A DNA stretch of 64,000 nucleotides from a virus (lineage: Duplodnaviria; Caudoviricetes): IMG/VR virus record IMGVR_UViG_3300033757_000347; one strand, 5' to 3'. The translations under genes were made by a program, and so were the position numbers. The number at the start of each line of letters is the position of its first letter. Within the stretch, counting starts at the first letter, position 1. Under the pieces are notes generated by a model. That model was not told where the DNA came from. It saw only the letters and a list, made by a program, of their open reading frames with translations, and did no database searches. Positions 4,352 through 51,068 of the stretch are shown piece after piece.

Positions 4352-4371
4352 CAGCATCAATCAACAAAACT

Positions 4372-5108: not shown

Positions 5109-5120
5109 GTTTTGCTAGAA

Positions 5121-5152
5121 TTTTTTCGTCTCGCTAAAACTTGTTAATTTTA
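5121..5152 (+). promoter_or_regulatory. early promoter repeat, copy 8
   Basis: TTTTTTCGTCTC-N12-TAATTTTA. Confidence 0.65.
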
Positions 5153-5171
5153 CAGCATAATCATTAACAAC

Positions 5172-5659: not shown

Positions 5660-5677
5660 CACTTTTTTAACCGAAAA

Positions 5678-5709
5678 TTTTTTCCTGTCAGAAAAGCGTG
5701 TTATATTTG
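5678..5709 (+). promoter_or_regulatory. early promoter repeat, copy 9
   Basis: TTTTTTCCTGTC-N12-TATATTTG (canonical Bacteroidota -7). Confidence 0.8.
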
Positions 5710-5733
5710 CTTCATAAATTCTAAACAACAACA

Positions 5734-6453: not shown

Positions 6454-6485
6454 TTTTTTCCTTTCTTAAAATAGTTCTACTTTTA
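6454..6485 (+). promoter_or_regulatory. early promoter repeat, copy 10
   Basis: TTTTTTCCTTTC-N12-TACTTTTA; ATG only 4 nt downstream, so the mRNA may be leaderless. Confidence 0.75.
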
Positions 6486-6489
6486 CACA

Positions 6490-6717
6490 ATGAACGCACC
6501 TAAACTGAGAACATCAACGGAAGATACTGCTCGCTACTGGGCAAAGACGGGAACGGACATTCTATTCTCGGAATCAGACCCCTTCGACGGCAAAGTCTCG
6601 AAGGAAAAGCTCGAGCAGAACTTGTACAACCGAATACTGATGAACATCATCGACTACGAAACGCCCGACGTGAGCGAAGCTCAGCTGGCCGAATGCATCG
6701 AACTCTCCAAAAATTAA
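6490..6717 (+). CDS. hypothetical protein
   Basis: ORF track. Confidence 0.6.
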   Translation: MNAPKLRTSTEDTARYWAKTGTDILFSESDPFDGKVSKEKLEQNLYNRILMNIIDYETPDVSEAQLAECIELSKN

Positions 6718-6722
6718 AGACC

Positions 6723-6926
6723 ATGAACTACGAGATAAACGTATCTTACAAAGGAGAACACTACTTCGCTACCGCTGAACGGTCCATAACGACCAAGAAG
6801 CACTGCGTGGAACTTCTCCTGAAATCTCGCGAAGCTTTTCCAAAAGCGAAAGGCTACGAGATAAGCGTGACTCGCTGGGAAAAGGTCGGTTACTTGATCA
6901 ACTTAACTGAATTATTGGAACCATGA
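6723..6926 (+). CDS. hypothetical protein
   Basis: MNYEINVSYKGEHYFAT... Confidence 0.65.
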   Translation: MNYEINVSYKGEHYFATAERSITTKKHCVELLLKSREAFPKAKGYEISVTRWEKVGYLINLTELLEP

Positions 6927-7087
6927 AAAGAACGAAGAAAGAACCGATCGCCGATCGTCGGCGCAAAGCTCTGATGGAGCACTTCCACCGAATGGATCAC
7001 CGGCTTCTCGTGAGCTTCCTCAACTGCTGGCTCAAGAATTCCGAGGTCAAGTACCTCTGCCAGGAGGAAGGCGTGAAAGTCGACTAG
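6923..7087 (+). CDS. hypothetical protein (54 aa)
   Basis: ATGA-coupled ORF MKRTKKEPIADRRRK... Confidence 0.55.
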   Translation: MKRTKKEPIADRRRKALMEHFHRMDHRLLVSFLNCWLKNSEVKYLCQEEGVKVD

Positions 7088-23197: not shown

Positions 23198-24515
23198 ATT
23201 AGCAAGAAATCCCACAAGTCTTTAGCTTGTGTGGCTGAATTGCGTTACAAATATAATAATTATTTTTAGAATTTCTTGTTAGGTTTGTTAAGAGTTTGTA
23301 TATTTGCATTATGAAGTACAGAGCATATAGATATAGGTTGTACCCAAACGAAGAACAAAAGGTGCTTATTGCAAAGCATCTTGGCTCTTGTCGATTCATC
23401 TATAACTATGCTCTTGCAAAGAAAGTGAAAGCCTATCAGGTTGATGGCACTAACCTCTCTCGCTTTGATATTCAAGCGGACTTACCAAATATGAAAAAGT
23501 CTGATGAGTATTGTTGGCTAAAAGAAGTTAATTCACTTTCGCTTCAAGCATCACTTGCTAATCTTGATTCGGCTTACACAAAGTTCTTTCGTGAACACAA
23601 AGGCTTCCCTAATTTCAAGTCAAAGAAAGATAGCAAGCAAAGTTTTTCTATACCTCAAAACACAAAAGTTGATTTCGAGAATGGTAGAGTATTCATTCCT
23701 AAATTCAAAATCGGGATCAAAGCAAAATTGCATCGCACCTTTGAAGGTATAGTTAAATCATCTACAATTACAAGAACATCAACAGGTAAGTATTTCATTT
23801 CTATTCTTGTGGAAGTGAATAAATCCGATGTACCTATGAAACCAATTTGTGAAAGCAAAGCAGTTGGTATAGACCTCGGTATTAAAACATTCGCTGTCCT
23901 TTCAGATGGAACGGAAATACCTAATCCTAAATACCTAAAGCAATCGCTTGATAAAGTTAAGCACCTTCAACGCTCTCTATCTCACAAGACCAAAGGGTCA
24001 AAGAATAGAGATAAAGCAAGAAGAAAGTTAGCGTTAGCACACGAGAGAGTAACCAATCAAAGAAAAGATTTCTTACATAAGGTTACGAAATATCTCGTTA
24101 GCAATTACGATACTATCTGTCTTGAAGATTTGAATGTTAAGGGAATGGTTAAAAATCATCATCTTGCACAATCAATATCCGATGTTAGTTGGAGTATGTT
24201 CAACACTCTCTTAGAGTACAAAGCACAAGAGCAAGGAGTTAATATTCTTCGTATTGGAAGATTTGAACCCTCATCGAAGTTTTGCCCTTGTGGCTACATT
24301 AATAAGGGACTAACTCTCGCTATGCGTGAATGGACTTGCCCGGAATGTGGCACTATTCACTATAGAGATTTGCTCGCGGCTATCAATATCAAACGATTTG
24401 CTTTCCGAAACATAAATACGGTTGGAGCGACCGAAATTCACGCTTGTGGAGATATGAGTGGGGTTACTCACTCAGCCCAAGAAGCCCACAAATCTTCAGT
24501 TTGTGGGTAGTTCAC
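23198..24515 (+). mobile_element. IS200/IS605-family (IS1341-type, tnpB-only) element
   Basis: Left-end hairpin CCCACAAG..CTTGTGTGG (about 23211-23234); right-end hairpin CCCACAAA..TTTGTGGG followed by TAGTTCAC; left boundary approximate; AT-richer than flanks. Confidence 0.8.
23311..24510 (+). CDS. tnpB: RNA-guided endonuclease TnpB
   Basis: HTH_OrfB (YRYRLYPNEEQ), RuvC GIDLG / LEDL / RD..AAINI, Zn finger CPCG..CPECG. Confidence 0.93.
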   Translation: MKYRAYRYRLYPNEEQKVLIAKHLGSCRFIYNYALAKKVKAYQVDGTNLSRFDIQADLPNMKKSDEYCWLKEVNSLSLQASLANLDSAYTKFFREHKGFPNFKSKKDSKQSFSIPQNTKVDFENGRVFIPKFKIGIKAKLHRTFEGIVKSSTITRTSTGKYFISILVEVNKSDVPMKPICESKAVGIDLGIKTFAVLSDGTEIPNPKYLKQSLDKVKHLQRSLSHKTKGSKNRDKARRKLALAHERVTNQRKDFLHKVTKYLVSNYDTICLEDLNVKGMVKNHHLAQSISDVSWSMFNTLLEYKAQEQGVNILRIGRFEPSSKFCPCGYINKGLTLAMREWTCPECGTIHYRDLLAAINIKRFAFRNINTVGATEIHACGDMSGVTHSAQEAHKSSVCG

Positions 24516-34884: not shown

Positions 34885-36720
34885 ATGACGAAACAGAACA
34901 AAGAAATTAGCGAAAAGTACCAGCTATTGGACGAGATAGAGCACGTGCTCAAACGTCCGGGAATGTACATCGGCTCGACCAAACCGCACACTGCCCAGGA
35001 ATGGATCCTTAAGGACGGAATGTACGAGAAGGAAGAACTGACTTACAACCCAGGTTTCCTAAAACTTTTTGATGAGATCATTTCCAACTCAGTAGACGAG
35101 TACAAGAGGACAGGAAAGGTAACCACAATCAAAGTCATGGTGGTTAGCGACACTATCTCCGTCTTCGACAACGGTGGAATACCCGTCATTCAGCACACCG
35201 ATCACAAGCAGTGGATCCCTGAGATGATATTCTCGAACCTTCGTGCTGGCTCTAACTTCGACGATGACGAGAGCAGAATCGTTGCAGGAACTAACGGTAT
35301 CGGAGCAACTGCTGTAAACATCTTCTCAACTAAGTTCATGGTGAACACGGCGGACGGAAAGAACCAGTTCGTTCAGGTTTACACCGACAACATGTCAAAG
35401 AAGACCCAACCGAAAGTGTCAGGTTCTTCTCGCAGTTTCACAGAGATCACTTACACTCCGGATCTTAAGAGGTTCGGCATGGACAGCATAGACGATGCTC
35501 ACATCAAGATGATGAGAAAGCGAGTCATTGACATCGCTGCTTGCAATCCCGGTTTGCGCTTGGAGTTCAACACCGAAAAATTCAGGTTCAAAACCTTCAA
35601 GGAATACGTTGACACTTACGTGAAGGACTGCGTGTGGGAAAAATCAAAGGACTGGGAAATAGCGATAGGAGTTTCCAAGGACGGGTTTCAATCCGTTTCC
35701 TTCGTGAATTCCATAGCAACCAAGGAGGGGGGAACTCACGAGAACTTCATCCTTTACCAAGCGGTCGAAGCCATCAGAGCAATGATCAAGAAGAAGCACA
35801 AAGTTGAAGTTAAACCTGCAGAGATCAGAGCACACATGTTTCTGTTCATGAACTGCACCATCGTCAACCCAGCTTTCGATTCTCAGACCAAGACCAGGTT
35901 GATTACTGAACCTAAGGATTTTGGAACTACTCACAAAGTTTCGGATAAGTTCAACAAAGCCCTGTTCGAGTCAGAGGTTGTCCAATCGCTTCTTGATTGG
36001 ATCGAACAGAAGAAAGCAGCGGAGGAAAGAACCGAACTCAGAAAGCTCAACAAGACTCTTGGAACGGCAAAGATACTCAAGCTCATAGATGCTAAGGGAC
36101 GTGACCGTAACAAGTGCGTTCTCGGAATATTCGAAGGAAACTCTGCAGTTTCAGCCGTTCGAAAGTTCAGAGACCCTCAAATTTTTGGTGGGTTTCCTCT
36201 TAAGGGAAAGTTCATAAACGTGAGCGAGATGACTAACGCTGAGGTCATCAAGAACGACGAAGCTGTTCAGCTAATGGGAGCGTTAGGAATAAAGTTCGGA
36301 GAGTACCCAAGCAGCTTGAGGTACGGGAAGATCTACTTGTACACCGATGCAGATCCGGACGGCGATCACATTGCTGCTTCGCTGTTGAATTTTTTCGACA
36401 AGTATTGGCCGGATCTCATCAATCACGGAAGAATATTTCGAGTCATGACTCCGCTCGTTGTTGCAAAGAAGGGAAAGGAAACTCTGCTGTTCTACACTGA
36501 TGCTGAATTTTCCGCTTGGGAAAAGAAGCACGCTAAGGGTTGGGACATTGAGTACAAGAAAGGTTTAGCAGCTTTGGAGGACGAGGAATACAAGGAAATC
36601 ATTCACAAACCCGTTCTTCTGAAGCTCAGCAACGATGACAATTACAAGCAGAGCTTGCAGGACTGGTTCGGACCCGACCCATCTGTGAGAAAGGAAAAAT
36701 TGCTGGCAAAGTCAGTATAA
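34885..36720 (+). CDS. type IIA DNA topoisomerase, ATPase/TOPRIM subunit (T4 gp39+60/GyrB-like)
   Basis: EHVLKRPGMYIG, DEIISN, GTNGIGA, EGNSA, PLKGK, TDADPDG. Confidence 0.95.
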   Translation: MTKQNKEISEKYQLLDEIEHVLKRPGMYIGSTKPHTAQEWILKDGMYEKEELTYNPGFLKLFDEIISNSVDEYKRTGKVTTIKVMVVSDTISVFDNGGIPVIQHTDHKQWIPEMIFSNLRAGSNFDDDESRIVAGTNGIGATAVNIFSTKFMVNTADGKNQFVQVYTDNMSKKTQPKVSGSSRSFTEITYTPDLKRFGMDSIDDAHIKMMRKRVIDIAACNPGLRLEFNTEKFRFKTFKEYVDTYVKDCVWEKSKDWEIAIGVSKDGFQSVSFVNSIATKEGGTHENFILYQAVEAIRAMIKKKHKVEVKPAEIRAHMFLFMNCTIVNPAFDSQTKTRLITEPKDFGTTHKVSDKFNKALFESEVVQSLLDWIEQKKAAEERTELRKLNKTLGTAKILKLIDAKGRDRNKCVLGIFEGNSAVSAVRKFRDPQIFGGFPLKGKFINVSEMTNAEVIKNDEAVQLMGALGIKFGEYPSSLRYGKIYLYTDADPDGDHIAASLLNFFDKYWPDLINHGRIFRVMTPLVVAKKGKETLLFYTDAEFSAWEKKHAKGWDIEYKKGLAALEDEEYKEIIHKPVLLKLSNDDNYKQSLQDWFGPDPSVRKEKLLAKSV

Positions 36721-39123: not shown

Positions 39124-40521
39124 ATGCAGCAACAGATAATTAACAAGACCGTTTCTCAATACTTAGACGAGGATTACGCTCTGTACGGAATGTACACTCT
39201 GGAGAACAGAGCTATTCCGTCGGTCATAGACGGTTTCAAGCCAACTCAGCGCAAGATCATATACGTCGCCGACCGAGTTTGGAGGTCCGGTAACGAGAAG
39301 CCGCTCAAGATATTCCAGCTAGGAGGAAAGATTGCATCGGAAGCTCACTATCACCACGGTGACGGTAGCTTGAACGTTGCTATCGTTGGAATGGCCCAAT
39401 CGTTCAAGAACTCGTTACCTCTTCTCGAAGAGATCGGTCAGTTCGGTTCGCTGAGGTCTCCTGAAGCCGGTGCGCCAAGGTACATCTCAACCAAAACTAC
39501 TAAGAACTTCCGGCTTCTTTACAAGGATTTCGAGCTCCTCGAAAATCAGATCGACGAGGGAGACGAGATAGAACCAAAGTACTTCCTTCCGATCATACCG
39601 ACAGTCCTTCTCAACGGTAGTTCTGGGATCGCTGTCGGGTTTGCCACCAACATACTGAATAGGAATCCAATCGACCTTATCGATGCGTGCCTGAGAGTGT
39701 TGGATGGGAAACCTGTTGGAAAGCTTTTACCGTGGTGGAGAGATTACAGCGGAAGAGTTGAACAAGTCGACAGCACCAACCAGTACATCATGCACGGTTC
39801 GTACAGAGTGCTGAACACAACGACTGTGGAAGTAACTGAGCTGCCTCCGTCGATAACGTTTGCTAAGTACGAAGCTCACCTGAACTCTCTTCTCGAGCGA
39901 GGCATCATCTACAATTACGAGGACAATTCTTCGAGCGGGATAAATTACGTCATAAAATTCTCTAGAGCTACTCTAGCTAAGCTAATGTCGAAAGGTCGGT
40001 TGGAAAGCACGCTGAAGATGCTGGAAACCGAGACCGAAAATTTGACCTGCTTGAACGAGCACGGAAAACTCATAGAGTTCAGCACAGTGCCGGAAGTCGT
40101 AGAGTACTTCACAAAGTTTCGTCTCTCGTTCTACGACAAGAGGAAAGCTTACTTGATCGATAAGTACAACCGAGAACTAAAAGTTCTTAGCAACCGTGCA
40201 AGGTTCGTAAAGAGCATAATAGAAAAGAAACTGACCATTAACAACGTTCCAAAAGCTCAGATCGTTCTTTACTTGGAAACGGCTAACTTTGATGAGATCG
40301 ACGGATCCTATTCCTACTTGCTGAACATGCCGATCCACTCTCTTACTAAGGAAACCTACGAACAGTTGCTAAAGGAAGTTGAGGACAAAAAAGTTGAGAT
40401 AGCTGAGATCTCCAAACGTCAGCCTATCGACATGTACAGGGAAGACCTTCTGAAGCTGAAGCAGACGCTAAGGTCGGAAGAAAATTCAACTGACCATACC
40501 CGAAAAAGAAAGGTAAAATAG
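39124..40521 (+). CDS. type IIA DNA topoisomerase, breakage-reunion subunit (T4 gp52/GyrA-like)
   Basis: RAIPSVIDGFKPTQRK, YHHGD, APRY catalytic Tyr, NGSSGIAVG. Confidence 0.95.
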   Translation: MQQQIINKTVSQYLDEDYALYGMYTLENRAIPSVIDGFKPTQRKIIYVADRVWRSGNEKPLKIFQLGGKIASEAHYHHGDGSLNVAIVGMAQSFKNSLPLLEEIGQFGSLRSPEAGAPRYISTKTTKNFRLLYKDFELLENQIDEGDEIEPKYFLPIIPTVLLNGSSGIAVGFATNILNRNPIDLIDACLRVLDGKPVGKLLPWWRDYSGRVEQVDSTNQYIMHGSYRVLNTTTVEVTELPPSITFAKYEAHLNSLLERGIIYNYEDNSSSGINYVIKFSRATLAKLMSKGRLESTLKMLETETENLTCLNEHGKLIEFSTVPEVVEYFTKFRLSFYDKRKAYLIDKYNRELKVLSNRARFVKSIIEKKLTINNVPKAQIVLYLETANFDEIDGSYSYLLNMPIHSLTKETYEQLLKEVEDKKVEIAEISKRQPIDMYREDLLKLKQTLRSEENSTDHTRKRKVK

Positions 40522-40525
40522 CAAC

Positions 40526-40714
40526 ATGCACACACTAGGTTACGCTTGCATCAACACAGCTCTATCAGCTAACGGACTGTCAGTCAACCGCGGAATGATT
40601 CGCCGGACTTTCGACAGCAAGGGTTTACCTTGGTGCGGTGAGCTAGCCGAAAAAAATTTGATCGACCTTCTTTCTGTCCTTACTTGGAACTACAACAATG
40701 GCATCCGATCCTGA
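40526..40714 (+). pseudogene. uvsE: truncated UV-damage endonuclease (UvsE/UVDE) N-terminus
   Basis: LGYACIN...R.M.R...NL.DL..L.WN...GI, then an early stop. Confidence 0.65.
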
Positions 40715-40809
40715 ACCAGCTTACTTGGAAATAAGCAACACTTACACTTTCTGGGTGGTAGCAACGGACATGAACAAAAAAGTGTTAGTTCCAAAATAAT
40801 CAGACAAAT

Positions 40810-41745
40810 ATGTACAAGATTTTTTCGGTAGACGGATCCTCACTAGCTGAGGGAATATGCGAGGAGCTTGGGTGCGAGCTCGGAAAGTTTAAGATCGACA
40901 AATTTTCCGACGGAGAGTTGAGCCCGCAATTTTTAGAGTCCGTCCGAGAAAAGAAAGTTTTCCTGGTTTCCAGCACAGTCACAGCAGAAAAGATAGTAGC
41001 AATGCTGCTCAGCATTGATGCTGCAAAAAGAGCTTCAGCTTCGGAAATAATCATGGTCATACCGTATTTCGGGTATTCACGGCAGGACAGAAAAGAGGGC
41101 GCTAGGGGTGCCATCGGAGCAAAGCTTATGGCTGATTTATTTCAAGCAGCGGGTGCAAACCGACTCATCTGCATCGATCTTCACTCTGAGCAGATACAAG
41201 GTTTCTTCAACATTCCAGTGAACCTTATACCTGGAAGCTTTGCGTTCAGCAAGTTCAGCAAAAAATTACCAGACGACGAGTACTGCGTCTGTTCACCCGA
41301 TGCAGGTGGGGTAAAGAGAGCTATGCGGTTTTACCAGAGGTTTCTTCGTCGCTTTCCTAGCGCAACGTTTGCAATGATGTCGAAGATCAGAACTCGTCCC
41401 AACGAGATCGAAAGAATGGACCTGATAGGAGAAGTAGAAGGAAAGCACGTTCTGCTGTTAGACGATATGGTGGACACGGGAGGGACTCTGATAAAAGCAG
41501 CCGAGCTCCTCAAGGCTGGAGGAGCTCGCAAAGTAACTGCTCTAATTTCTCACGGAGTTCTGTCAGGTAATGGTCACGAAAAGATAGCAAAGTCAGAGCA
41601 TTTGGACCAGCTCGTCATAACCGATTCAGTTCAACAGCCGGCAAATCCAAAGATAGAAGTGGTTAGCTGCGTTCACTCGTTGGCAGCAGCAATAGAAGCT
41701 GTGATCAACAAGATTTCCATGGACGAGCGGTTAGACCGCCTTTAG
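40810..41745 (+). CDS. prs: ribose-phosphate pyrophosphokinase
   Basis: FSDGE, PYFGYSRQDR, DLHSEQIQGFF, SPDAGG, LDDMVDTGGT. Confidence 0.93.
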   Translation: MYKIFSVDGSSLAEGICEELGCELGKFKIDKFSDGELSPQFLESVREKKVFLVSSTVTAEKIVAMLLSIDAAKRASASEIIMVIPYFGYSRQDRKEGARGAIGAKLMADLFQAAGANRLICIDLHSEQIQGFFNIPVNLIPGSFAFSKFSKKLPDDEYCVCSPDAGGVKRAMRFYQRFLRRFPSATFAMMSKIRTRPNEIERMDLIGEVEGKHVLLLDDMVDTGGTLIKAAELLKAGGARKVTALISHGVLSGNGHEKIAKSEHLDQLVITDSVQQPANPKIEVVSCVHSLAAAIEAVINKISMDERLDRL

Positions 41746-42396
41746 CATAGCGATCAATTTTGGCTGAGGAGATAGGTCGTTCTTGTCCTTGCGAACAGAC
41801 GTGTGCGCGTAAAATCCAGGTTCTCCTCTGAGAGCTCGAACGTTAACGTCCCAGATGTCGTCAGAGTACTTGTAATCCCTTCCGTAACGCTGTTCCCAGA
41901 ATTTCATTAGTTCGTACAAACTTTCGATCTGAGCATCTGTGTAAGCGTGGTAGTACTTGTACCCACGGTAAGGAACGTCAAGTTCGCATACTTCGTCAAA
42001 CGGAACAACTCGGTTGACGTAATTCCTAAACTTTCCGTCCGTCCCCTTCGTCAGTTGACCCCAGTTACAAATTTCGACAGCGATACTGTTCTTGTCCAAG
42101 GATTTGTACGGCAGCCCGTAAAAATCGAAGATCTCTTCCTTTAAACCAAGGTGGTAAGCCCAGTACTTTGACGAGAAACCCTGAACGATCTCCCCGTCCT
42201 TCCAATTTCCGGTACTTCCAGGTTTTCCTCCTATTGCTATGCAAGTAGCTATTCTTTCAGGCGTGCTTGCCCACCACTCAAACGTCGCGAACGGATTTGG
42301 GTTTCCAGCGGTGTGGTGAAGGTACAGCTGAGTCTTGGTCGTTTCCTGTTTAATGTACTGATTGTCGGGAAACGGGTATTGCGTGATCGGTTTCAT
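41731..42396 (-). CDS. N-acetylmuramoyl-L-alanine amidase (endolysin)
   Basis: LHHTAG, WAYH, SIAVEICN, AQIESL, H...KND. Confidence 0.88.
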   Translation of the reverse strand: MKPITQYPFPDNQYIKQETTKTQLYLHHTAGNPNPFATFEWWASTPERIATCIAIGGKPGSTGNWKDGEIVQGFSSKYWAYHLGLKEEIFDFYGLPYKSLDKNSIAVEICNWGQLTKGTDGKFRNYVNRVVPFDEVCELDVPYRGYKYYHAYTDAQIESLYELMKFWEQRYGRDYKYSDDIWDVNVRALRGEPGFYAHTSVRKDKNDLSPQPKLIAMLKAV

Positions 42397-42706
42397 ATTT
42401 TTCTCATTTTTTGTTATTTATTTCAAACCAAATGTAGTCTTGGCAGTATAAATAACCTTGAAATCTACTCAAAATTCTTTCAGATGATCATACTAATTAA
42501 ATCAACCGATCGAGCACACTTACCTAAGCTCGGGTTAGATCATCTGATAATCACAGAAATACGTTGCCTCACTTAATTCAGAAAGCGGGAGACCAAAGTC
42601 AAAATTCACCTCTGAAACACGGTCAAACACTTAGCTGAGAGCAACAGCTATCTAAACTGAGACGGATTTCGAAACTGATTGATACTTAAAAAAATAATTC
42701 AAAAAT

Positions 42707-43423
42707 ATGGAATTGTCAAACCAGATACTCAGCGACATCACAGTATACATGAAGTACGCCAGGTATTCGAACGAGCACAAGAGGAGAGAAACTTGGGAAG
42801 AGCTCGTAACCAGAAACATGGAAATGCACATACGGAAGTACCCAGACCTAGAAGAAGAAATTCGAAAAAATTACCAGCTTGTGTACGATCGAAAGGTTCT
42901 GCCTTCGATGAGGTCGTTGCAGTTCGGTGGAAAACCGATCGAAATATCTCCAAACAGAATTTACAACTGCGCGTACTTGCCGATAGACGATTGGCGAGCG
43001 TTTAGCGAAATAATGTTTCTCCTGTTGGGAGGATGCTTTTCTGAAGATACCGAAATAATAACAGCAGCTGGAAAAAAGCAAATCAAAGATGTAACCGTCA
43101 ACGATAAGGTGTTAACTTTTGATACTGATACTAAAACGTACCAGTACGTAACTCCATTTTGTGTACTTCAAACTCCTTCAGAAAACAAGGATAAATTTGA
43201 ATTAACATTTAGTGATGGCTCAATTGTTAAATGCACAGAAGATCATAAATTCTTAACGAAAAATAGAGGATGGGTAGAAGCTAAGAATTTAGACGAAGAC
43301 GACGAAATTGAAGAGTTTATCGGCCAAGAGGCTAATTTTTTAGAATTTTCTGCAGCTGAAATAGAGAGTGAATACAAACATGTTTTTCAAGCATTATCTA
43401 ATTTGCATCAGCTACTTGGATAA
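42707..43423 (+). CDS. nrdJ: class II ribonucleotide reductase, piece 1 (109-aa extein + split intein 1 N-half)
   Basis: KYAR, RETW, VLPSMR, YNCAY, LLLGG|CFSEDTEI..CTEDHKF..RGWVEA. Confidence 0.92.
   Translation: MELSNQILSDITVYMKYARYSNEHKRRETWEELVTRNMEMHIRKYPDLEEEIRKNYQLVYDRKVLPSMRSLQFGGKPIEISPNRIYNCAYLPIDDWRAFSEIMFLLLGGCFSEDTEIITAAGKKQIKDVTVNDKVLTFDTDTKTYQYVTPFCVLQTPSENKDKFELTFSDGSIVKCTEDHKFLTKNRGWVEAKNLDEDDEIEEFIGQEANFLEFSAAEIESEYKHVFQALSNLHQLLG
43034..43420 (+). other. split intein 1, N-half (129 aa)
   Basis: Block A CFSEDT, block B CTEDH. Confidence 0.9.
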
Positions 43424-43447
43424 ATAAAAATAAATAATCCAAGAAGA

Positions 43448-44599
43448 ATGAATCGAAACCCAAGATCAAATCAATATTATTTAGATCGCGGTTATGTATT
43501 TAGCGAAGCGGTTAAATTAGCCGAAACGTTTGATGGAACTAATAAAGTAGATGACCACATTCAGAGAATAGTAGGATATGATCGTTGGAAACAAGTTAGA
43601 TACACAAATTGCTCACTAAAAAAGGAAAATCAAATTAAAAAATATGGTCTTTCTGAGTATGAAAAAAGGAAAGCCTCTTTTGCTAAGGCATTAGACCATA
43701 CTAGAGAAAACAGTATCAATACTTGGGTAAATCGTGGATATTCTATACACGAAGCCAAAGCAATTGTTTCTAAAATACAAAGAACTCGGTCTAAGCGATG
43801 TGTTGAATATTGGACAATAAAAGGGTATACCATTAATGAAGCAGTTTTGATGGTAAGCGAAAGTCAATCCATAACTAGTAAAAAGAGCTTCTTGACTCGA
43901 TACGGTGATGAGGTAGGCTCCATTAAATACGTCAATTACATTAAAAAACTTAAAGAAGTTTCACAATTTGGAATCAGCTATTGGCTAAATAAACATGACG
44001 GCAACTCGGATAAAGCAATCGAATCTTTATTTCAATATCAAAGCAAAAATGGATTCAGTCAACGGGGTTCCAAAAAATATTGGCTGAGTTTAGGATATGA
44101 TGATGAATCTGCTGAACAAGCAAGTTTACATTTTTCAAGGAAACGGTCATCCTGGTGTTATGAGTATTGGTTAGATAAGGGCTTTTTGTACAACGAAGCA
44201 ATTGACATAGTCAAGAATATTCAATCAAAAAATGCTAGACTTCGAAAATTTCTTAATTTTTCTAAACTGGAAAAAGAAGTAATATCCGAATTACGAGAAA
44301 TGCATCCAACTTTAACATTTTTAGAAAATGAAATTGTAATTGATAACGGGGCTAGAATATTTCCAGATATTGTAATTAAAGAGTTAAATACCGTTATTGA
44401 AGTGTATGGAGATTTTTGGCATGCAAATCCAAGACAATACAAAACTGACCAATACATGCACTCGGGAATGCTAGCAAAAGAGATATGGGAAAAAGATAAA
44501 GTTCGACTTGACCTCTTAAAAAAATCGTACGATAATATCATCGTACTTTGGGAAAGTGACATTAAAAAAAATGGAATAGCTAGTGTTAAAATTAATTAA
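43448..44599 (+). CDS. free-standing Vsr-like/EDxHD-type homing endonuclease with N-terminal repeats
   Basis: SKLE, FPD, IEVYGDFWH, KD..R, WE; repeated YW..KGY...EA. Confidence 0.8.
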   Translation: MNRNPRSNQYYLDRGYVFSEAVKLAETFDGTNKVDDHIQRIVGYDRWKQVRYTNCSLKKENQIKKYGLSEYEKRKASFAKALDHTRENSINTWVNRGYSIHEAKAIVSKIQRTRSKRCVEYWTIKGYTINEAVLMVSESQSITSKKSFLTRYGDEVGSIKYVNYIKKLKEVSQFGISYWLNKHDGNSDKAIESLFQYQSKNGFSQRGSKKYWLSLGYDDESAEQASLHFSRKRSSWCYEYWLDKGFLYNEAIDIVKNIQSKNARLRKFLNFSKLEKEVISELREMHPTLTFLENEIVIDNGARIFPDIVIKELNTVIEVYGDFWHANPRQYKTDQYMHSGMLAKEIWEKDKVRLDLLKKSYDNIIVLWESDIKKNGIASVKIN

Positions 44600-44693
44600 A
44601 AAAGTAAGAATTGAAGAAAAAGTAAGATATTGGGATATGTCTATTCCCAAAACTCATAATTATGTTTTGGGTAATGGTGCAGTTGTTCATAAT
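44583..44693 (+). other. split intein 1, C-half (37 aa)
   Basis: Blocks F/G ending HN, +1 Thr. Confidence 0.9.
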
Positions 44694-45611
44694 ACGGGAG
44701 TAGGATTTAGCGTTCAAAAGCACCACGTTGAAAACTTGCCAGAAATCACAAAGCCTAATCACAACCGGCGTAGAAGGTTTCTGATAGGCGATAGCATCGA
44801 GGGTTGGGCAGATTCTATAAAAGTTCTGATGAAGTCTTACTTCTTCGGTGGGTCGGCTATCGATTTTGATTTCAGAGACATTCGGCCTAAGGGCGCTAGG
44901 CTGGTAACTTCCGGTGGAAAAGCTCCAGGACCTCAACCTCTAAAAGAGTGCTTGGTAAAGATCGAAGGTTTACTATCTCAGAAAGAGAATGGCGACAAGC
45001 TGAAACCTATCGAAGTTCACGATATCGTCTGCTACATAGCTGACGCTGTTCTAGCCGGAGGAATTCGCAGAGCTGCTCTTATCAGCTTGTTCAGCGCGGA
45101 CGACGACGAGATGATTTCTGCCAAGACCGGCTCGTGGTGGGAACTTAACCCACAGAGAGGTAGAGCTAACAATTCTGCGGTTCTTCTTCGCAACATAATA
45201 ACCAGAGAATTTTTCATGGACATGTGGGCAAAGATAGAAGCGTCGGGTTCGGGAGAACCTGGAATATATTTTAGCAACGACAAAGATTGGGGGACTAACC
45301 CATGCTGCTTGAGCGGAGATACTCTCATTCAAACCAAGAACGGAGAGATACCGATCAGAGAATTAGTAAATCTTCATAAAAAAACCGGATCCTGCCCAAA
45401 GGTCTGGACGTATGATGAAAAAACCGCAACTCGAGAGCTCATGTCTATAGAAGCTGCTGATTTAACCAGACAAAACGCCGAACTCATAAAGCTCGAGTTG
45501 GAAAATGGATCGATCATAAAATTGACTCCAGATCACCAAGTGTACACCAAAAACAGAGGTTACGTTGAGGCTGCTAAACTTACGGAGGACGATGAACTAT
45601 TAATGTGGTAG
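44583..45611 (+). CDS. nrdJ: class II RNR piece 2 (intein 1 C-half + 204-aa extein + intein 2 N-half)
   Basis: GTG start; WDMSIPKTHNY..VVHN|TGVGFS, GGIRRAA, TNPC|CLSGDT..LTPDHQ. Confidence 0.92.
   Translation: MLKLIKKVRIEEKVRYWDMSIPKTHNYVLGNGAVVHNTGVGFSVQKHHVENLPEITKPNHNRRRRFLIGDSIEGWADSIKVLMKSYFFGGSAIDFDFRDIRPKGARLVTSGGKAPGPQPLKECLVKIEGLLSQKENGDKLKPIEVHDIVCYIADAVLAGGIRRAALISLFSADDDEMISAKTGSWWELNPQRGRANNSAVLLRNIITREFFMDMWAKIEASGSGEPGIYFSNDKDWGTNPCCLSGDTLIQTKNGEIPIRELVNLHKKTGSCPKVWTYDEKTATRELMSIEAADLTRQNAELIKLELENGSIIKLTPDHQVYTKNRGYVEAAKLTEDDELLMW
45306..45608 (+). other. split intein 2, N-half (101 aa)
   Basis: CLSGDT, LTPDH. Confidence 0.9.
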
Positions 45612-45646
45612 ACCCGTATAAATAAAATAAACACACGGGTTCAATC

Positions 45647-46480
45647 ATGAAAATGTCCAACGTAACGGAGATTTTGTCTCTTTCAAAAAAGGAATTGCGA
45701 TCAAAGATAGAAAGAGATGGGTTTATGAATGAATATTTAGACTTCAGAAAAACTCAAGTATCTAAGTTTTCTGTAGTTTATAAAGAGTTCATGATAAAAA
45801 AATACGTTACTGTTGAACAGATACAGTGGCTAACTAAAAAGTACAATGATGGTCATGGTCTTAAATCAATCGCCAGCGAATTACAATCGTCATATACTTT
45901 AATTAGACAACTTTTTAAGTATCTGAACATCCCAATCAGACACGGATATAACGTCGTGACTGGCGAGTTACGCACTAAAAGAGCTAACAAGTGTCAGATG
46001 GAAATGAATACTAAAACTGGATGGTTTTCAGACACAGTGAGACAAAATATAGCAATAAAAAATAAAACCAATCGCGGGGTTCAGGGATGGTATTTCAATC
46101 GGTCTATGGATAAGTGGGTATGGTTGCGAAGTACGTATGAGTACATATACGCCAAATGGTTGGACCGAACTCATCAAGTATGGGATACAGAAGTAAAAAA
46201 ATACACGTTATCAAATGGAAAAGAGTATAGACCTGACTTCTTTATTTACGAAAACGGTGAAATATCGAAGATACTTGAAGTAAAAGGATTCTTTGATCCT
46301 CTCGCGTATAAAGCAGAATTATTGAATTCTGATATAAACGTATCTGTGATTTTGCTGAACTTTACAAATTCATCAATATCAACGTACTGCGAATCTGGAT
46401 CGAATTACATATCCGAATTGAAAGAATGGAAAAAAATACGAAAGATAAATGAAAATAAAAAGAATAACTGTGGAAGTTAA
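45647..46480 (+). CDS. free-standing PD-(D/E)XK endonuclease
   Basis: LRSTYE..AKWLD, YRPDF, EVKG. Confidence 0.8.
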   Translation: MKMSNVTEILSLSKKELRSKIERDGFMNEYLDFRKTQVSKFSVVYKEFMIKKYVTVEQIQWLTKKYNDGHGLKSIASELQSSYTLIRQLFKYLNIPIRHGYNVVTGELRTKRANKCQMEMNTKTGWFSDTVRQNIAIKNKTNRGVQGWYFNRSMDKWVWLRSTYEYIYAKWLDRTHQVWDTEVKKYTLSNGKEYRPDFFIYENGEISKILEVKGFFDPLAYKAELLNSDINVSVILLNFTNSSISTYCESGSNYISELKEWKKIRKINENKKNNCGS

Positions 46481-46550
46481 CGAGGATGTTTATGATATTC
46501 AAGTTGAAAAAAATCATAACTTCTTTGCTAACAATATATTAGTGCATAAT
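46449..46550 (+). other. split intein 2, C-half (34 aa)
   Basis: VYD..HN, +1 Cys. Confidence 0.9.
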
Positions 46551-47531
46551 TGCGAAATTTCCCTAAGACCTTTTCAGTTCTGCAACCTTTGCGAGGTCAA
46601 TGCTTCTGACGTTGAATCGCAGGAAGACTTGAACTCTCGCGTAAAAGCAGCGGCCTTCATCGGAACTCTTCAAGCTGGGTACACCGAGTTTCATTACCTT
46701 AGAACAAACTGGCAGAGAACCACGGAAAAGGAAGCTCTCATCGGAGTTGGTATGACCGGCATCGGGTCGGGCGCTGCTCAAAAATTTGATCTAGCTGAAG
46801 CTGCTAACGAGGTAAAGGCAGAAAACGAGAGAGTAGCTAAGATGATTGGTATAAATTCCGCGGCAAGGTGCACTACCATAAAACCCAGCGGAACTTCGAG
46901 CCTCGTTCTTGGAACTTCGTCCGGCATACACGCTTGGCACAACCCTTACTACATTCGCAGGATAAGAGTTGGCAAGAATGAATCGATCTACACTCACCTG
47001 TCAATCTATCACCCAGAACTCCTCGAAGATGATTTCTTTAGGCCTCACGATACGGCTATCATATCCGTTCCGCAGAAAGCGCCGGAAGGTTCGGTCTTTA
47101 GAACCGAAACAGCTATAGAGTTGCTGGAAAGAATCAAGCGGTTCTACAGCGATTGGATAAAACCTGGACACAGGTCTGGGCAGAACACTCACAACATATC
47201 TGCAACCGTTTCGATCGACAAGAATCGTCGCTACGTTTACAAGTGGAAGCACAAGCTCGAACTGACGGACGATCCAAACGGAGTGGACGAGTGGCAAGCA
47301 GTTGGAAACTGGATGTGGGAAAACCGCAAGTTTTACAACGGAATAGCAGTCCTGCCTTACGATGGAGGGACTTACGTCCAGCCTCCTTTCGAGGATTGCA
47401 CTGAGGAAAAGTATCACGAAATGATGGATCACCTGTCTAAAGTTGACCTCACAAAAGTGGTAGAAATGGAAGACTTGACCGACCTCAAAGGCGAACTCGC
47501 CTGTGTAGGTAATTCTTGTACAGTAGTTTAG
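46449..47531 (+). CDS. nrdJ: class II RNR piece 3 (intein 2 C-half + 326-aa extein)
   Basis: VYDIQVEKNHNFFANNILVHN|CEISL, CNL, TIKPSGT, YVQPPFE, C-terminal CVGNSC. Confidence 0.93.
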   Translation: MKIKRITVEVNEDVYDIQVEKNHNFFANNILVHNCEISLRPFQFCNLCEVNASDVESQEDLNSRVKAAAFIGTLQAGYTEFHYLRTNWQRTTEKEALIGVGMTGIGSGAAQKFDLAEAANEVKAENERVAKMIGINSAARCTTIKPSGTSSLVLGTSSGIHAWHNPYYIRRIRVGKNESIYTHLSIYHPELLEDDFFRPHDTAIISVPQKAPEGSVFRTETAIELLERIKRFYSDWIKPGHRSGQNTHNISATVSIDKNRRYVYKWKHKLELTDDPNGVDEWQAVGNWMWENRKFYNGIAVLPYDGGTYVQPPFEDCTEEKYHEMMDHLSKVDLTKVVEMEDLTDLKGELACVGNSCTVV

Positions 47532-47553
47532 TTATTACTTATTTTCGCAAGCG

Positions 47554-47585
47554 TTGCCGTGATAAATACAATAAAATCACGGCAA
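47554..47585 (+). promoter_or_regulatory. late promoter GATAAATA inside a 10-bp hairpin that reaches the start codon
   Basis: TTGCCGTGAT...ATCACGGCAA. Confidence 0.75.
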
Positions 47586-48334
47586 TGTTTGTTTATAGAG
47601 TTACGAATTTGATAAATGGTAAAATTTATGTAGGCAAAAGTAAAAATAACGATCCAAAGTATTTTGGGTCAGGCCCATTAATTAAAAACGCGATTCTAAA
47701 ATACGGACTAGAAAATTTTCGCAAAGATATTCTTTGTGAGTGCAATACTCTATCTGACTTAAATGAACGAGAAGTTTTTTGGATAGAAAAATTAAATACA
47801 ACAAATAGAGCAGTTGGTTACAATTTGACTAAGGGAGGAGACGGTGGAGATACTTTTTCCAGTAGATCGATTATTTCTCAAAATATCACAAGAGAAAAAT
47901 TAAAAGAAAAAAACACTAACCTGACTGAATTAACTAAAGAAAAACACCGTCAAAATACAAAAAAATTATGGAAAAATTCTGATTTTAGAGAAAAAGTTCT
48001 TTCCAAGAAAAAAGAAGTAGAGAGTACGACCGAATATAAAGAAAAATTTTCTAAGAGAATGAAAGAAGTTTTTTCAACTGAAGAAAATCGACGCAAGCGA
48101 AGCGTAAATTCAAAAGGACCTAATAATTCGAGATGGCTTGGATACGCAGATTTATATGATAGGGATTCAAACTTAATTAAAAGATTTGAAAGTTTGAAAC
48201 ATCTTTTTTCAGAATACAAAATATCCTATCAAACCCGTATGAATTTAAAGAGTCACAATTCTGCTATTATTGAAAATTCACAAAAACGAAAATATCCATA
48301 CGCTGGTTATACTATTAAAATCACTAAATTCTAA
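47585..48334 (+). CDS. GIY-YIG homing endonuclease (Seg-like)
   Basis: FVYRVTNLINGKIYVG, YFGSG, E..WI, GYN...GG. Confidence 0.9.
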   Translation: MFVYRVTNLINGKIYVGKSKNNDPKYFGSGPLIKNAILKYGLENFRKDILCECNTLSDLNEREVFWIEKLNTTNRAVGYNLTKGGDGGDTFSSRSIISQNITREKLKEKNTNLTELTKEKHRQNTKKLWKNSDFREKVLSKKKEVESTTEYKEKFSKRMKEVFSTEENRRKRSVNSKGPNNSRWLGYADLYDRDSNLIKRFESLKHLFSEYKISYQTRMNLKSHNSAIIENSQKRKYPYAGYTIKITKF

Positions 48335-48381
48335 AACCAGAATGCTTTTCTGTGTATAAATTACCAAAATAACAAAGACAA

Positions 48382-48558
48382 ATGAAGAAGATTCTTTACC
48401 TGTTTGGCATCGTTTTAGTTCTTACTTTGGCAAGCTGCTCGTTCTTCGGATCGAAGGAAGCTCCAGAGAGTGCTGACACTACTGCAGTTCAGGTTGACAG
48501 CGTTGCTGTTGATAGCGCTGCTAATGCCGACACAACGAAGATCATGGTAACTCCGTAA
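48382..48558 (+). CDS. small lipoprotein
   Basis: MKKILY...LASC, followed by DTT/VDS repeats. Confidence 0.7.
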   Translation: MKKILYLFGIVLVLTLASCSFFGSKEAPESADTTAVQVDSVAVDSAANADTTKIMVTP

Positions 48559-48670
48559 GGTTTTACGTGAACAATGATGAAAAAAGGGGACCAAATGGCC
48601 CCTTTTTTCGTTTTTACCATAAACTTCTAGAGCTCTCGTAGTAATAGAAACTCAAATAAAAATTGCCTAT

Positions 48671-49411
48671 ATGATCGAAAAGGATTTTGAGTGGGGCCAA
48701 GCGAACGCTTGGTTCAAAGACACGATCGGCCAAGAGATATTCCAGAACCGAATTTACGAAAAACTGTACCCAGTGGAAGACGGAGACATAGTCGTTGACG
48801 TCGGTGCTAGCATAGGTCCATTCATGTACTCGTTGATGGGTAAAAAAGTAAAGCACATGTACTGCATTGAGCCAAGTCCCCAGGAATTCGAGACGCTTCA
48901 GATCAATGCTAAGAACATGAACTTTCCAGTAACCTGCTTGAACAAGGGAATCGGAGCAACTACCGGAACCGCCGAGATGGAGCTTTGGGGAACGTACAAG
49001 GACCAAGGACCTCAGCAGTTCGAGGTCGGAGAAGCTCCGTCAATATCGTTCAAAGATTTTTTGAAGAAGAACAAGATCGATCACATCGATTTTCTCAAAA
49101 CTGACTGCGAAGGAGGAGAGTACGACATCTTCAACATCGAAAACTTTTCCTGGATTCATGCTAACGTTAGAAAGATCGTTGGCGAGTGGCACCTTCAGAC
49201 TCCAAAGATGGTCCAGCAGTTCGTCAAGTTCAAGGACCTGTACTTGAGAACTTTTGATAAGTTTGAGGTCCATTCGGTCGATGGGTTCAACGTGACTCAG
49301 CACCTTCACGGAGATTGGTTCATCAGCTATTTCAAACAGGTCATAATTCACATAGACAATTCAGACAAAGTAACATTTGCACATGGCACCACAGGCACAA
49401 CATCAAATTAG
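48671..49411 (+). CDS. FkbM-family methyltransferase
   Basis: VVDVGASIG, IEP, IDFLKTDCEGGE, GEWH. Confidence 0.88.
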   Translation: MIEKDFEWGQANAWFKDTIGQEIFQNRIYEKLYPVEDGDIVVDVGASIGPFMYSLMGKKVKHMYCIEPSPQEFETLQINAKNMNFPVTCLNKGIGATTGTAEMELWGTYKDQGPQQFEVGEAPSISFKDFLKKNKIDHIDFLKTDCEGGEYDIFNIENFSWIHANVRKIVGEWHLQTPKMVQQFVKFKDLYLRTFDKFEVHSVDGFNVTQHLHGDWFISYFKQVIIHIDNSDKVTFAHGTTGTTSN

Positions 49412-49649
49412 GATAGGCTTGGAAAATTCCACAGCTATCGTTTGCGACTCTTGCAAAAACGACACATTCGTCGAAGTTAATTACTTGCGTCGCGTTTCAA
49501 AATTACTAACCGGAGCTCCGCAGGACATGGTGATGAACGTTCCGGCTTTCGCTTGCTCAAAGTGCGGTCACGTCAACGAGCAGTTCAGGATGCCAGAAGA
49601 AAAGAAACAGGAAGAAAAACCTGCTAGCCCGATAATAAGTCTACCTTGA
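49383..49649 (+). CDS. small Zn-ribbon protein
   Basis: CDSC...CSKCG. Confidence 0.7.
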   Translation: MAPQAQHQIRIGLENSTAIVCDSCKNDTFVEVNYLRRVSKLLTGAPQDMVMNVPAFACSKCGHVNEQFRMPEEKKQEEKPASPIISLP

Positions 49650-49690
49650 TAAGATTCACGGTTATCTCTGATAAATAAAAATAAACGGAG

Positions 49691-50371
49691 ATGATTATTT
49701 ACAAAACAACAAATCTTATTAATGGAAAATTTTACGTAGGTTTAGACACTAAAAATGATCCAAGTTATTTAGGGTCAGGTCTTCTTTTGAAAAAAGCAAT
49801 ACGGAGATATGGGCAAGAACAGTTTAGAAAGGAAATTTTAGAAGAATGCAAGACGGTAGAAGAATTAAGAGACCGCGAAATTTTTTGGATAAACAAGTTA
49901 TCTGCTCAAAACCCAAATGTTGGATATAATGTAGCAGATGGAGGGTTGGGCGGAGATACTTTTACAAATAACCCAAATAAAAGTCAAATTCGTAAAAAAC
50001 TAAGGAAAAATCACAGTGCTGAAACTAAAGAAAAAATTTCAAAAAACAATTGGAATTCAAAAACTAAAGGAGAAGGGCACTTTAAAACAGGAACAAAATG
50101 GACACCTGAACAAAGAGAAAAAATGATTAGGTTTTTTGAAGAGACAGGCGGCCCATTTAAAGGAAAAACTCATTCACTTGAATCAAAAGAAATCAATCGA
50201 AAAGCTCACTTAGGAACAGTAATGTCTAACGAAAGCAAACAAAAAATAGGATTTGCAAATAGAGGAACGATTCATAAAATCATAGAATGTCCATACTGCG
50301 GTAAAGCCGGCGGAAAACCGGCTATGGAACGTTGGCACTTTAAAAATTGTAAAAAATACAAAGATGAGTAA
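49691..50371 (+). CDS. GIY-YIG homing endonuclease with NUMOD3 repeats
   Basis: IIYKTTNLINGKFYVG, YLGSG, HS.ETK.KIS. Confidence 0.9.
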   Translation: MIIYKTTNLINGKFYVGLDTKNDPSYLGSGLLLKKAIRRYGQEQFRKEILEECKTVEELRDREIFWINKLSAQNPNVGYNVADGGLGGDTFTNNPNKSQIRKKLRKNHSAETKEKISKNNWNSKTKGEGHFKTGTKWTPEQREKMIRFFEETGGPFKGKTHSLESKEINRKAHLGTVMSNESKQKIGFANRGTIHKIIECPYCGKAGGKPAMERWHFKNCKKYKDE

Positions 50372-51068
50372 AATTCGCATAACTGTGATTAGCGATACTC
50401 ACACGAAGCACAAAGTTCTGAACACCATCCTCCCAGGTGGTGATCTGCTTATTCATGCAGGAGATCTTAGTTCAAGAGGGTACTCGCACGAAGTGCAAAA
50501 CTTTTGCAAGTGGTTCGATTCGATCAACAACTACGATCACAAGATCTTCATTGCTGGTAATCACGACTTTCTTTTTGAAAACCACCCAGACGAGGCAGCT
50601 CAAATAGTTAACTCTTACAAGTGGATCACCTACCTTCAGGATTCGTTCGTGTCAATCGGAGAAGATCCTGACGCTCTTGTCAAAGTGTACGGAAGTCCGT
50701 GGCAACCTGAATTTTACAATTGGGCTTTTAACCTTCCTAGAAAAGGAGAAGAACTAGCTAAGGTTTGGAACGACGTGCCAGACGATGTTGACATACTGAT
50801 CACTCACGGACCGTCGCACGGAACCTTAGACCAAGTAAAGGGCTGGTCAGATCAACTGGGTTGCGAACTCTTAGCAGCTAGGTTAGCTGTCATAAAACCA
50901 AAGATCCACGTGTGCGGTCACATTCACAGTGGGTACGGTTACGTGTTCGACGGATCGACTCATTACTTTAATGCATCGGTCCTAAACGAAAGGTACGAGT
51001 ACGAGTACGCACCAAAGACTTTCGATTGGGATCCGAAAACGAACGCTATAACTTTTGTAGAAAAATAA
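50364..51068 (+). CDS. metallophosphoesterase (MPPED-like)
   Basis: SDTH, HAGD, GNHD, THGP, GHIH. Confidence 0.9.
   Translation: MSKIRITVISDTHTKHKVLNTILPGGDLLIHAGDLSSRGYSHEVQNFCKWFDSINNYDHKIFIAGNHDFLFENHPDEAAQIVNSYKWITYLQDSFVSIGEDPDALVKVYGSPWQPEFYNWAFNLPRKGEELAKVWNDVPDDVDILITHGPSHGTLDQVKGWSDQLGCELLAARLAVIKPKIHVCGHIHSGYGYVFDGSTHYFNASVLNERYEYEYAPKTFDWDPKTNAITFVEK

Follow-up and report, generated by a model that had tools for sequence, protein, structure and literature searches.

A phage ribonucleotide reductase gene apparently fractured twice by split-intein cassettes

Three gene pieces and two inserted cassettes

The stretch of DNA analysed here (hereafter, the window) comprises 64,000 nucleotides (nt) of the IMG/VR virus record IMGVR_UViG_3300033757_000347 (Duplodnaviria; Caudoviricetes) and contains nrdJ, a gene for a class II ribonucleotide reductase (RNR), that is distributed over three open reading frames (ORFs), here called pieces 1 to 3. 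Together with three free-standing homing endonuclease genes (HEG1–HEG3), the pieces account for the six genes between positions 42707 and 48334, all on one strand in the ORF list (Table 1). Each piece contributes an extein (E1–E3), and the exteins are separated by the N- and C-terminal halves (IntN and IntC) of two inteins, Int1 at GG/T (hereafter, site b; the slash marks the break) and Int2 at NPC/C (site c). Three genes with two split inteins at these sites had been claimed in an initial annotation of the sequence, and both the ORF list and alleles with empty sites agree with it, including all of its extein and intein lengths and motifs. Pfam and PHROGs detect intein or Hint modules at every break and RNR modules in every extein, and the arrangement that defines a ‘fractured’ gene (N-terminal part with IntN, then IntC with C-terminal part, on one strand and in the original order) occurs twice in this single gene. 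The anatomy of the locus, its exact insertion sites, mobility, selection and recurrence are demonstrated below, and we consider it highly probable that the gene is a doubly fractured phage nrdJ of class II, resembling ribonucleoside-triphosphate reductase (RTPR), that hosts two different mobile cassettes.

Table 1 Positions of the gene pieces, exteins, intein halves, hairpins and endonuclease genes in the window
Feature	Position	Strand	Size	Description
Piece 1	42707-43423	+	238 aa	Extein ...LLLGG, then IntN CFSED...
E1	42707..43033	+	109 aa	Ends ...FLLLGG; 98% amino acid (aa) identity to residues 1-109 of uninterrupted alleles
Insertion 1	43034-44693		1660 bp	Not a multiple of three
Int1-N	43034..43423	+	129 aa plus TAA stop	Cys1; block B T-E-D-H
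Hairpin 1	43415..43443	+		7-bp stem CTTGGAT/ATCCAAG; A/T loop with GATAAATA; just upstream of HEG1 start
HEG1	43448..44599	+	383 aa	Free-standing; N-terminal repeats, C-terminal nuclease possibly Vsr/DUF559-like
Piece 2	44583-45611	+	342 aa	GTG start; IntC, extein, IntN
Int1-C	44583..44693	+	37 aa	GTG start; ends VVHN; +1 Thr
E2	44694..45305	+	204 aa	TGVGFS to ...WGTNPC; 99% aa identity to uninterrupted alleles
Insertion 2	45306-46550		about 1245 bp	
Int2-N	45306..45611	+	101 aa plus stop	Starts CLSGD; Cys1; block B T-P-D-H
Hairpin 2	45611..45641	+		GACCCGT/ACGGGTT enclosing TATAAATA (45617-45624); upstream of HEG2
HEG2	45647..46480	+	277 aa	Free-standing; helix-turn-helix region and putative PD-(D/E)xK-type nuclease
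Piece 3	46449-47531	+	360 aa	IntC, then extein
Int2-C	46449..46550	+	34 aa	Ends LVHN; +1 Cys
E3	46551..47531	+	326 aa plus stop	Starts CEISLRPFQFCN; ends in C-terminal Cys pair; 98% aa identity to uninterrupted alleles
HEG3	47585..48334	+		Free-standing, just downstream of nrdJ; GIY-YIG (SegE-like); alternative TTG start at 47516

The two junctions are fixed to the codon by uninterrupted alleles, about 90% identical to the window in nucleotide sequence, that were found in IMG/VR with tblastn. In five of these related sequences (L008, L009 and L081–L083; relatives are designated ‘L’ and their protein clusters ‘P’), E1, E2 and E3 follow one another directly, with 98–99% amino acid identity, and the joined product of 639 residues that had been proposed is colinear with uninterrupted alleles of exactly that length. 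In a DNA alignment, window positions 40704–43033, 44694–45308 and 46551–49646 are colinear with L082 at 86–91% identity. Both insertions are clean and share one internal order: IntN, a hairpin with a late-promoter motif, a free-standing endonuclease gene and IntC. The cassettes also differ from the exteins in GC content (0.31–0.36 versus 0.46–0.48). A 21-residue insertion in E3 (KNRRYVYKWKHKLELTDDPNG, positions 47313–47375) is common to the window and L082 and is missing from L118, L119, L122 and L084.

The joined exteins belong with the class II enzymes. The uninterrupted allele matches the NCBIfam model TIGR02505 (RTPR) at 227 bits (E 3.9e-67), below the equivalog cut-off of 340, so that on sequence it is a clear relative of the adenosylcobalamin-dependent RTPR, not an equivalog by the NCBI threshold. 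The B12-RNR insertion domain PF21995 scores 27.4 bits in piece 2 (cut-off 27) and 26.7 in the intact allele, the RNR barrel PF02867 scores 37.6 bits, and both class II motifs, TNPC-C-E and GELACxGxxC, are found. In an AlphaFold2 (AF2) model, the middle piece aligns to 1L1L, a class II RNR, with Z 7.6. The last residue of E2 occupies the position of the thiyl-radical Cys. In a collection of phage GenBank genomes the locus has no near relative, the top match covering 12% at 67% identity.

Both inteins carry the residues of class 1 inteins: C1, T-E-D-H, WD...THN, HN and +1 Thr in Int1, and C1, T-P-D-H, YD...NHN, HN and +1 Cys in Int2. Cys1, TxxH, the block F Asp and His, the terminal HN and the +1 Thr or Cys are conserved in all four aligned lineages. 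The intein profile PF14890 (cut-off 35.8 bits) scores 48.0 bits in piece 2, which holds one half of each intein, and aligns residues 2–34 of Int2-C with its positions 122–155 of 155; for Int1-N, the Pfam matches to Intein_splicing, Hint and PT-HINT all lie under their cut-offs. In the Protein Data Bank (PDB), the sequence nearest to both IntN halves is the NrdJ-1 intein 8UBS (E 1.2e-8 for Int1-N; E 7.9e-17 over 96 residues for Int2-N), and region 240–342 of the AF2 middle-piece model aligns to the same entry with Z 10.3 and 44% identity. Int2 also sits directly after the thiyl-radical Cys (TNPC/CEI), which is the insertion site by which NrdJ-1 is defined (PMC2677866). Judged by sequence and position, Int2 is related to the NrdJ-1 split intein, which is fast in experiments, and shares its site.

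Int1-N is conserved in L118, L119 and L122, and Int2-N is 100% identical at the amino acid level in L084. Int1-N has a tail of about 34 residues past the Hint fold (FLEFSAAEIESEY, positions 43319–43420) that is conserved in L118 and L119 and absent from L122. L119 (5721, 6912–7034) and L005–L007 have their site-c intein one residue earlier, at NP/CC, the position of the NrdA type. A tblastn search (E up to 0.01) found no further intein-like sequence in the window.

Mobility, selection and recurrence

As the initial annotation had stated, each endonuclease gene overlaps the next start, by 17 nt for HEG1 and piece 2 and by 32 nt for HEG2 and piece 3. Its description of an out-of-frame endonuclease gene in each gap needs amending for HEG1, which is out of frame with piece 2 only; HEG1 shares the frame of piece 1, from which it is separated by one TAA and eight codons. 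The assignment of the two genes to different families agrees with profile and model comparisons, which point to a Vsr/DUF559-like protein for HEG1 and a PD-(D/E)xK-type protein for HEG2. HEG1 matches TIGR00632 (vsr) at 20.4 bits (E 4.9e-4), far under the cut-off of 97.85, and also phrog_22677. An Atlas model of its residues 240–383 has template modelling (TM) scores of 0.66–0.68 to DUF559 clusters, with other entries, some of them without a family, reaching 0.75; on these weak matches, the C-terminal domain may be Vsr/DUF559-like. HEG2 has four residues (E165, D197, E211 and K213) that are invariant in seven homologues. The best fold match of its AF2 model is TnsA (1T0F; Z 8.0, root-mean-square deviation (rmsd) 4.6 Å), followed by many restriction-endonuclease-like folds with Z 5–6; Foldseek returned no match to this model at E up to 0.001, all matches being 6.7e-3 or weaker. 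Weak PHROG matches of HEG2 are to endonucleases and resolvases. Searches of PDB sequences with HEG1 and HEG2 gave nothing usable, and a pattern search of IMG/VR yielded only distant relatives (at most 49% identical for HEG1 and 44% for Int1-N); the close relatives of Int1 came from the protein collection described below.

The hairpins lie in spacers of 24 nt before HEG1 and 35 nt before HEG2. Hairpin 1 has a folding energy of −9.3 kcal/mol (z −3.5) and hairpin 2 of −10.8 kcal/mol (z −2.3), and hairpin 2 is identical in L084 and L124. The motif TATAAATA is exact before HEG2 and is matched at seven of eight positions before HEG1. A scan for sigma-70 promoters stayed at background, with 16 sites against 17.2 expected.

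Divergence among relatives separates the histories of the two cassettes. The Int2 cassette (1245 bp) differs from that of L084 at 5 nt, all synonymous and all in HEG2, between exteins that are only about 75% identical (57–87% per 60-nt window). Against L124 it differs at 1 nt, with a synonymous divergence (dS) of 0.29 in E2. Such near-identity between diverged exteins indicates recent homing. The Int1 cassette has diverged from that of L124 about as much as the exteins have, and against L118 it is 89–96% identical in nucleotide sequence, with exteins at 76–79%. We read these patterns as those of an older resident at site b and a recent arrival by homing at site c.

Codon-level comparison indicates that exteins and intein halves alike are under purifying selection. 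The ratio of nonsynonymous to synonymous rates (dN/dS) is 0.039, 0.014 and 0.012 for E1, E2 and E3 against an intact allele, and 0.022 and 0.017 for exteins against L124, which is equally fractured. Int1-N has a ratio of 0.063 against L118; Int1-C shows synonymous changes only, with no amino acid change, against both L118 and L124. HEG1 has a ratio of 0.16 against L124. Across five lineages, there is not one frameshift or stop in an extein.

The layout recurs. Among 5.8 billion proteins, a query with the middle piece identified seven clusters at 90% identity (P0001, P0002, P0003, P0005, P0007, P0008 and P0099) that carry both Int1-C and Int2-N, at 57–100% identity, and the two-site layout is present in at least five diverged lineages, with genomic contexts available in L118, L119–L121, L122/L123 and L127. 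All four possible states are found among relatives: neither intein in L082, Int2 alone in L084, Int1 alone in L126 (protein P0009) and both in the window. When piece 1 was used for an exhaustive search, site b proved to be occupied by E1–IntN pieces in at least nine clusters at 50% identity, and the same site also holds contiguous mini-inteins (for example P0132, 134 aa). Other combinations exist. In L015 and L007, one cut lies at site c and the other after E3 residue 114, giving pieces of 418, 260 and 226 aa and of 428, 269 and 227 aa, respectively; L012 (4462–6660) has one ORF of 732 aa with a large contiguous intein before Cys88 of extein 1 (IYN/C) and a split IntN at site c. The double-fracture layout is not unique, and several combinations occur in public metagenomes. 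The additional E3 site carries a Vsr-like endonuclease gene of 381–385 aa in L015 (5686–10469), L007 (5674–9941) and L014; in L053 it is the only site, and it lacks an endonuclease gene.

The relatives also differ in what is left of their endonuclease genes. All five genes are intact in L119–L121, in another genomic neighbourhood, and HEG1 is decayed in L118. Both endonuclease genes have been lost from L122/L123 and from L127, and the three nrdJ pieces are kept, which we take as an argument that trans-splicing is needed. What remains in these gaps is the end of the Vsr-like gene (..WWETDII in L122/L123 and ..WESELKEKG in L127) and, in L122/L123, the E-x-K segment of the second nuclease (KIVEIKGFW). 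The Vsr-like C-terminal codons stand before Int1-C and the PD-(D/E)xK remnant of L122 before Int2-C (L122: 4776–5000 and 6033–6128; L127: 3214–3340); the part of the endonuclease gene that supplies the downstream start region has outlasted the rest in both L122 and L127. In L126, which is split at site b only, a clean deletion has removed HEG1 except for the few terminal codons in which the downstream start lies. There (4272–6704) the Int1-N tail is fused to the last HEG1 codons (..WESDIKK..), and one in-frame TAG and one further codon precede the Int1-C ATG, such that the intein is split by a single stop and no endonuclease gene is present.

Predicted trans-splicing, possible cross-pairing and rival explanations

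The anatomy suggests a mechanism in which the three pieces would be translated separately and then joined twice. Int1-N of piece 1 and Int1-C at the head of piece 2 would ligate ...LLGG to TGVG..., the +1 nucleophile being Thr, and Int2-N at the tail of piece 2 and Int2-C at the head of piece 3 would ligate ...TNPC to CEIS..., giving an enzyme of 639 aa and about 72 kDa. The second ligation would rebuild the active-site loop. The radical Cys and the Glu two residues on start on different polypeptides, and the enzyme should therefore be inactive until the site-c junction is made. The endonucleases would serve the spread of the cassettes only, and the hairpins resemble elements reported by others to delay endonuclease translation until late infection. 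Translation of each piece, both splicing reactions and the avoidance of cross-pairing are inferences from this anatomy.

Several points weigh against this proposal. Splicing itself is something that we infer. Pieces 1 and 3 score 26.5 and 31.1 bits against PF14890, below its cut-off, as is expected for half domains. The GTG start of piece 2 has no Shine–Dalgarno-like sequence; in L124, L118, L119 and L126 the codon at the same position is ATG. A second RNR elsewhere in the phage genome, if there is one, would make nrdJ dispensable. Furthermore, both inteins are NrdJ-1-like, with 39% identity between their N halves and 33% between their C halves, and orthogonality is not evident from the sequence. 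A net-charge comparison shows that both IntN halves are acidic and that neither pair has a charge swap. Finally, the AF2 model of the middle piece, which is of low confidence (mean predicted local distance difference test (pLDDT) 56), folds Int1-C onto Int2-N as a complete Hint fold that matches crystal structures of inteins used in split-intein circular ligation of peptides and proteins (SICLOPPS) with Z 20.1 and rmsd 1.8 Å over 137 residues. The order IntC–extein–IntN of the middle piece is indeed the SICLOPPS topology (PMC2874743).

These features are the substance of the strongest rival explanation, that the two pairs are not truly orthogonal and that correct assembly comes about mainly through order and kinetics, with some cross-products (cyclised E2 and ligated E1–E3) tolerated. 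Here the early-emerging Int1-C would be captured by ready-made piece 1. The close relationship of the two inteins, their common charge polarity and the AF2 docking all speak for it, and we regard it as a serious, if less probable, alternative. The docking, as a model, would indicate no more than the structural compatibility of non-cognate halves and is silent on specificity. Pulling the other way, each IntC class has its own signature conserved across lineages: at site b, YWD/YYD is preceded by basic residues and followed by T-H-N-Y-V-L and an extra residue; at site c, VYD is preceded by acidic ED and followed by N-H-N-F-F-A. These signatures may confer selectivity, and so may the order of translation, in which Int1-C is ahead of Int2-N by about 240 residues. 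In an IntN tree, Int2 falls within a supported site-c clade (96/94), and neither of the two well-supported site-c clades includes a site-b intein; a single clade of the four site-b inteins appears in 20% of bootstrap trees. Four inteins from fractured genes, NrdJ-1, gp41-1, gp41-8 and IMPDH-1, have also been combined in one-pot laboratory work (PMC7090010), by analogy with which orthogonality would be plausible. On balance, we judge the chances to be even that the locus encodes a natural and obligate three-way protein ligation in which two NrdJ-1-like split inteins are mutually selective within one protein.

Explanations that dispense with splicing or with a functional product fare worse. The intein halves could act as non-covalent clasps that hold three chains in an active RNR complex, by analogy with the two NrdA chains of phage Aeh1, a fragmented RNR known to be active without ligation (PMC3045599, as summarised in PMC2677866). 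We think this unlikely: all splicing residues, including the terminal Asn and the +1 nucleophiles, are conserved in four diverged lineages, and an unspliced site c would leave about 135 intein residues between the radical Cys and the Glu in the active-site loop, which the enzyme could hardly be expected to tolerate. That selfish elements have disabled the gene and left it a decaying pseudogene, in a phage that relies on another RNR or on its host, would be in keeping with three homing endonuclease genes within 5.6 kb, and our search for another RNR covered the 64-kb window of a genome of roughly 295 kb; the low dN/dS of the exteins against both intact and fractured alleles, and their freedom from frameshifts and stops in five lineages, make decay very improbable. 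Least credible of all is that assembly or sequencing errors have put false stops and frame changes into contiguous cis-inteins, or that the inserts are removed from RNA. The sole lead towards it is the shared frames of pieces 2 and 3 and of piece 1 and HEG1, yet 25 stops interrupt the frame common to pieces 2 and 3, and the first insert, at 1660 bp, is not a multiple of three. Independent JGI, ENA and Logan assemblies with 57–99.98% identity have the same ORF structure, which establishes the split as real: L125, a JGI contig from another sample, is 99.98% identical over 10.6 kb with the same ORFs, and L124, a Logan contig with 96.0% nucleotide identity over 4032 nt (157 substitutions and 2 gaps), keeps HEG1, the 342-aa, 277-aa and 360-aa ORFs and every frame and stop. 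An Rfam scan of positions 42000–49000 (E up to 1) returned no intron family, its one match being a sub-threshold small RNA. With the stops kept in diverged assemblies and no intron model matched, we consider assembly error and RNA splicing ruled out for practical purposes.

Were the obligate three-way ligation real, the phage would depend on two ordered or orthogonal trans-splicing reactions for any enzyme that synthesises deoxynucleoside triphosphates (dNTPs), the arrangement would have outlived its selfish endonucleases in some lineages, and the lineages in the four states would supply orthogonal pairs that have evolved together, among them a natural split pair of the Cys1/Thr+1 type. The locus has a wider meaning as well. 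One essential gene can gather several independent intein–endonuclease cassettes; all stages of the homing cycle are seen, with the endonuclease gene intact, decayed or deleted down to the piece that provides the downstream start; and a split, once made, persists beyond the loss of the endonuclease. Natural split-intein pairs, one of them with Thr at +1, would here be required to work side by side on one polypeptide, and diverged alleles of each pair can be used to probe partner specificity among related inteins. The locus raises the question of what keeps a natural IntC–extein–IntN protein from cyclising itself.

The surroundings of the locus contain GIY-YIG endonuclease genes as well. HEG3 matches PF19835 (28.2 bits; cut-off 25), PF01541 (26.0 bits; cut-off 22.6) and phrog_314 (5.8e-32) and probably starts at the ATG at 47585 rather than at the TTG at 47516. 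It is absent from the strain L124, in which positions 47569–48265 have no counterpart. A second GIY-YIG/NUMOD3 gene (49691–50371), 43% identical in amino acids over 190 residues to the first (47516–48334), lies on the other side of a methyltransferase gene that the two flank, and it is likewise missing from L124 (positions 49603–50428 without a counterpart). As both genes are absent from this 96%-identical relative, they are presence/absence polymorphisms. Elsewhere the window has a TnpB/IS605 OrfB-type gene (23296–24510), two type II topoisomerase subunit genes, GyrB-like and of the topoisomerase IV/gyrase subunit A type (34885–36720 and 39124–40521), and a gene with a histone-deacetylase domain (2702–3877). 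One contig that encodes the exact middle-piece protein is 294,724 bp long, a size suggestive of a jumbo phage.

Comparison with known systems

The double fracture extends a published arrangement that has one break per gene. Dassa, London, Stoddard, Schueler-Furman and Pietrokovski (2009) described 26 loci, each ‘fractured in two’, and nowhere mention more than one break, cross-reaction or orthogonality (PMC2677866). As in their NrdJ-1 and NrdJ-2 loci, an N-terminal part with IntN is followed here by a hairpin spacer with TATAAATA, an endonuclease gene on the same strand, and IntC with a C-terminal part, and the endonuclease gene runs at its 3′ end into the downstream start (by 17 and 32 bp here, by 6–69 bp in their loci, where spacers are 27–51 nt). 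One endonuclease family of those loci is Vsr-like, as HEG1 may also be, and Int2 occupies the site of NrdJ-1, which follows the radical-Cys site of NrdA inteins by one residue. In contrast to those loci, the gene described here has two breaks, its middle piece bears the IntC and IntN of different inteins, and its GG/T site is not among the sites that they describe. Int2 has Cys at +1, whereas NrdJ-1 has Ser (bioRxiv 10.64898/2026.03.03.709324), and HEG2 looks PD-(D/E)xK/TnsA-like in sequence and model comparisons, rather than GIY-YIG or Vsr-like. Our search of the literature available without subscription did not find any natural gene that two split inteins interrupt. Actinophage inteins that contain out-of-frame endonucleases have been reported.

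Several inteins in one RNR gene are not new in themselves. The gene of Trichodesmium erythraeum encodes four (Liu, Yang and Meng 2003, as cited in PMC2874743). It resembles the nrdJ of the window in being a class II-type gene with several inteins, and RNR is a known intein hot spot. Its four inteins are reportedly contiguous and cis-splicing within one polypeptide, unlike the inteins of the window, both of which are split, leaving three polypeptides that must meet.

An RNR large-subunit gene cut by a free-standing homing endonuclease gene is also found in the nrdA-a/mobE/nrdA-b locus of Aeromonas phage Aeh1, in which control of the endonuclease gene by a hairpin and a late promoter is another likeness (PMC3045599, as summarised in PMC2677866). 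The Aeh1 locus is intein-free and its two chains assemble non-covalently, whereas in the window each break is flanked by complete split-intein halves in which no catalytic residue is missing. A parallel to the middle piece lies in engineered tandem (three-segment) trans-splicing with orthogonal split inteins and in SICLOPPS: a middle segment with IntC of one pair at its head and IntN of the other at its tail would be skipped or cyclised on mis-pairing (PMC7090010, PMC12707363, PMC2874743). Engineered constructs of this kind draw their inteins from different sources; the gene described here is natural, and both of its inteins belong to one NrdJ-1-like group.

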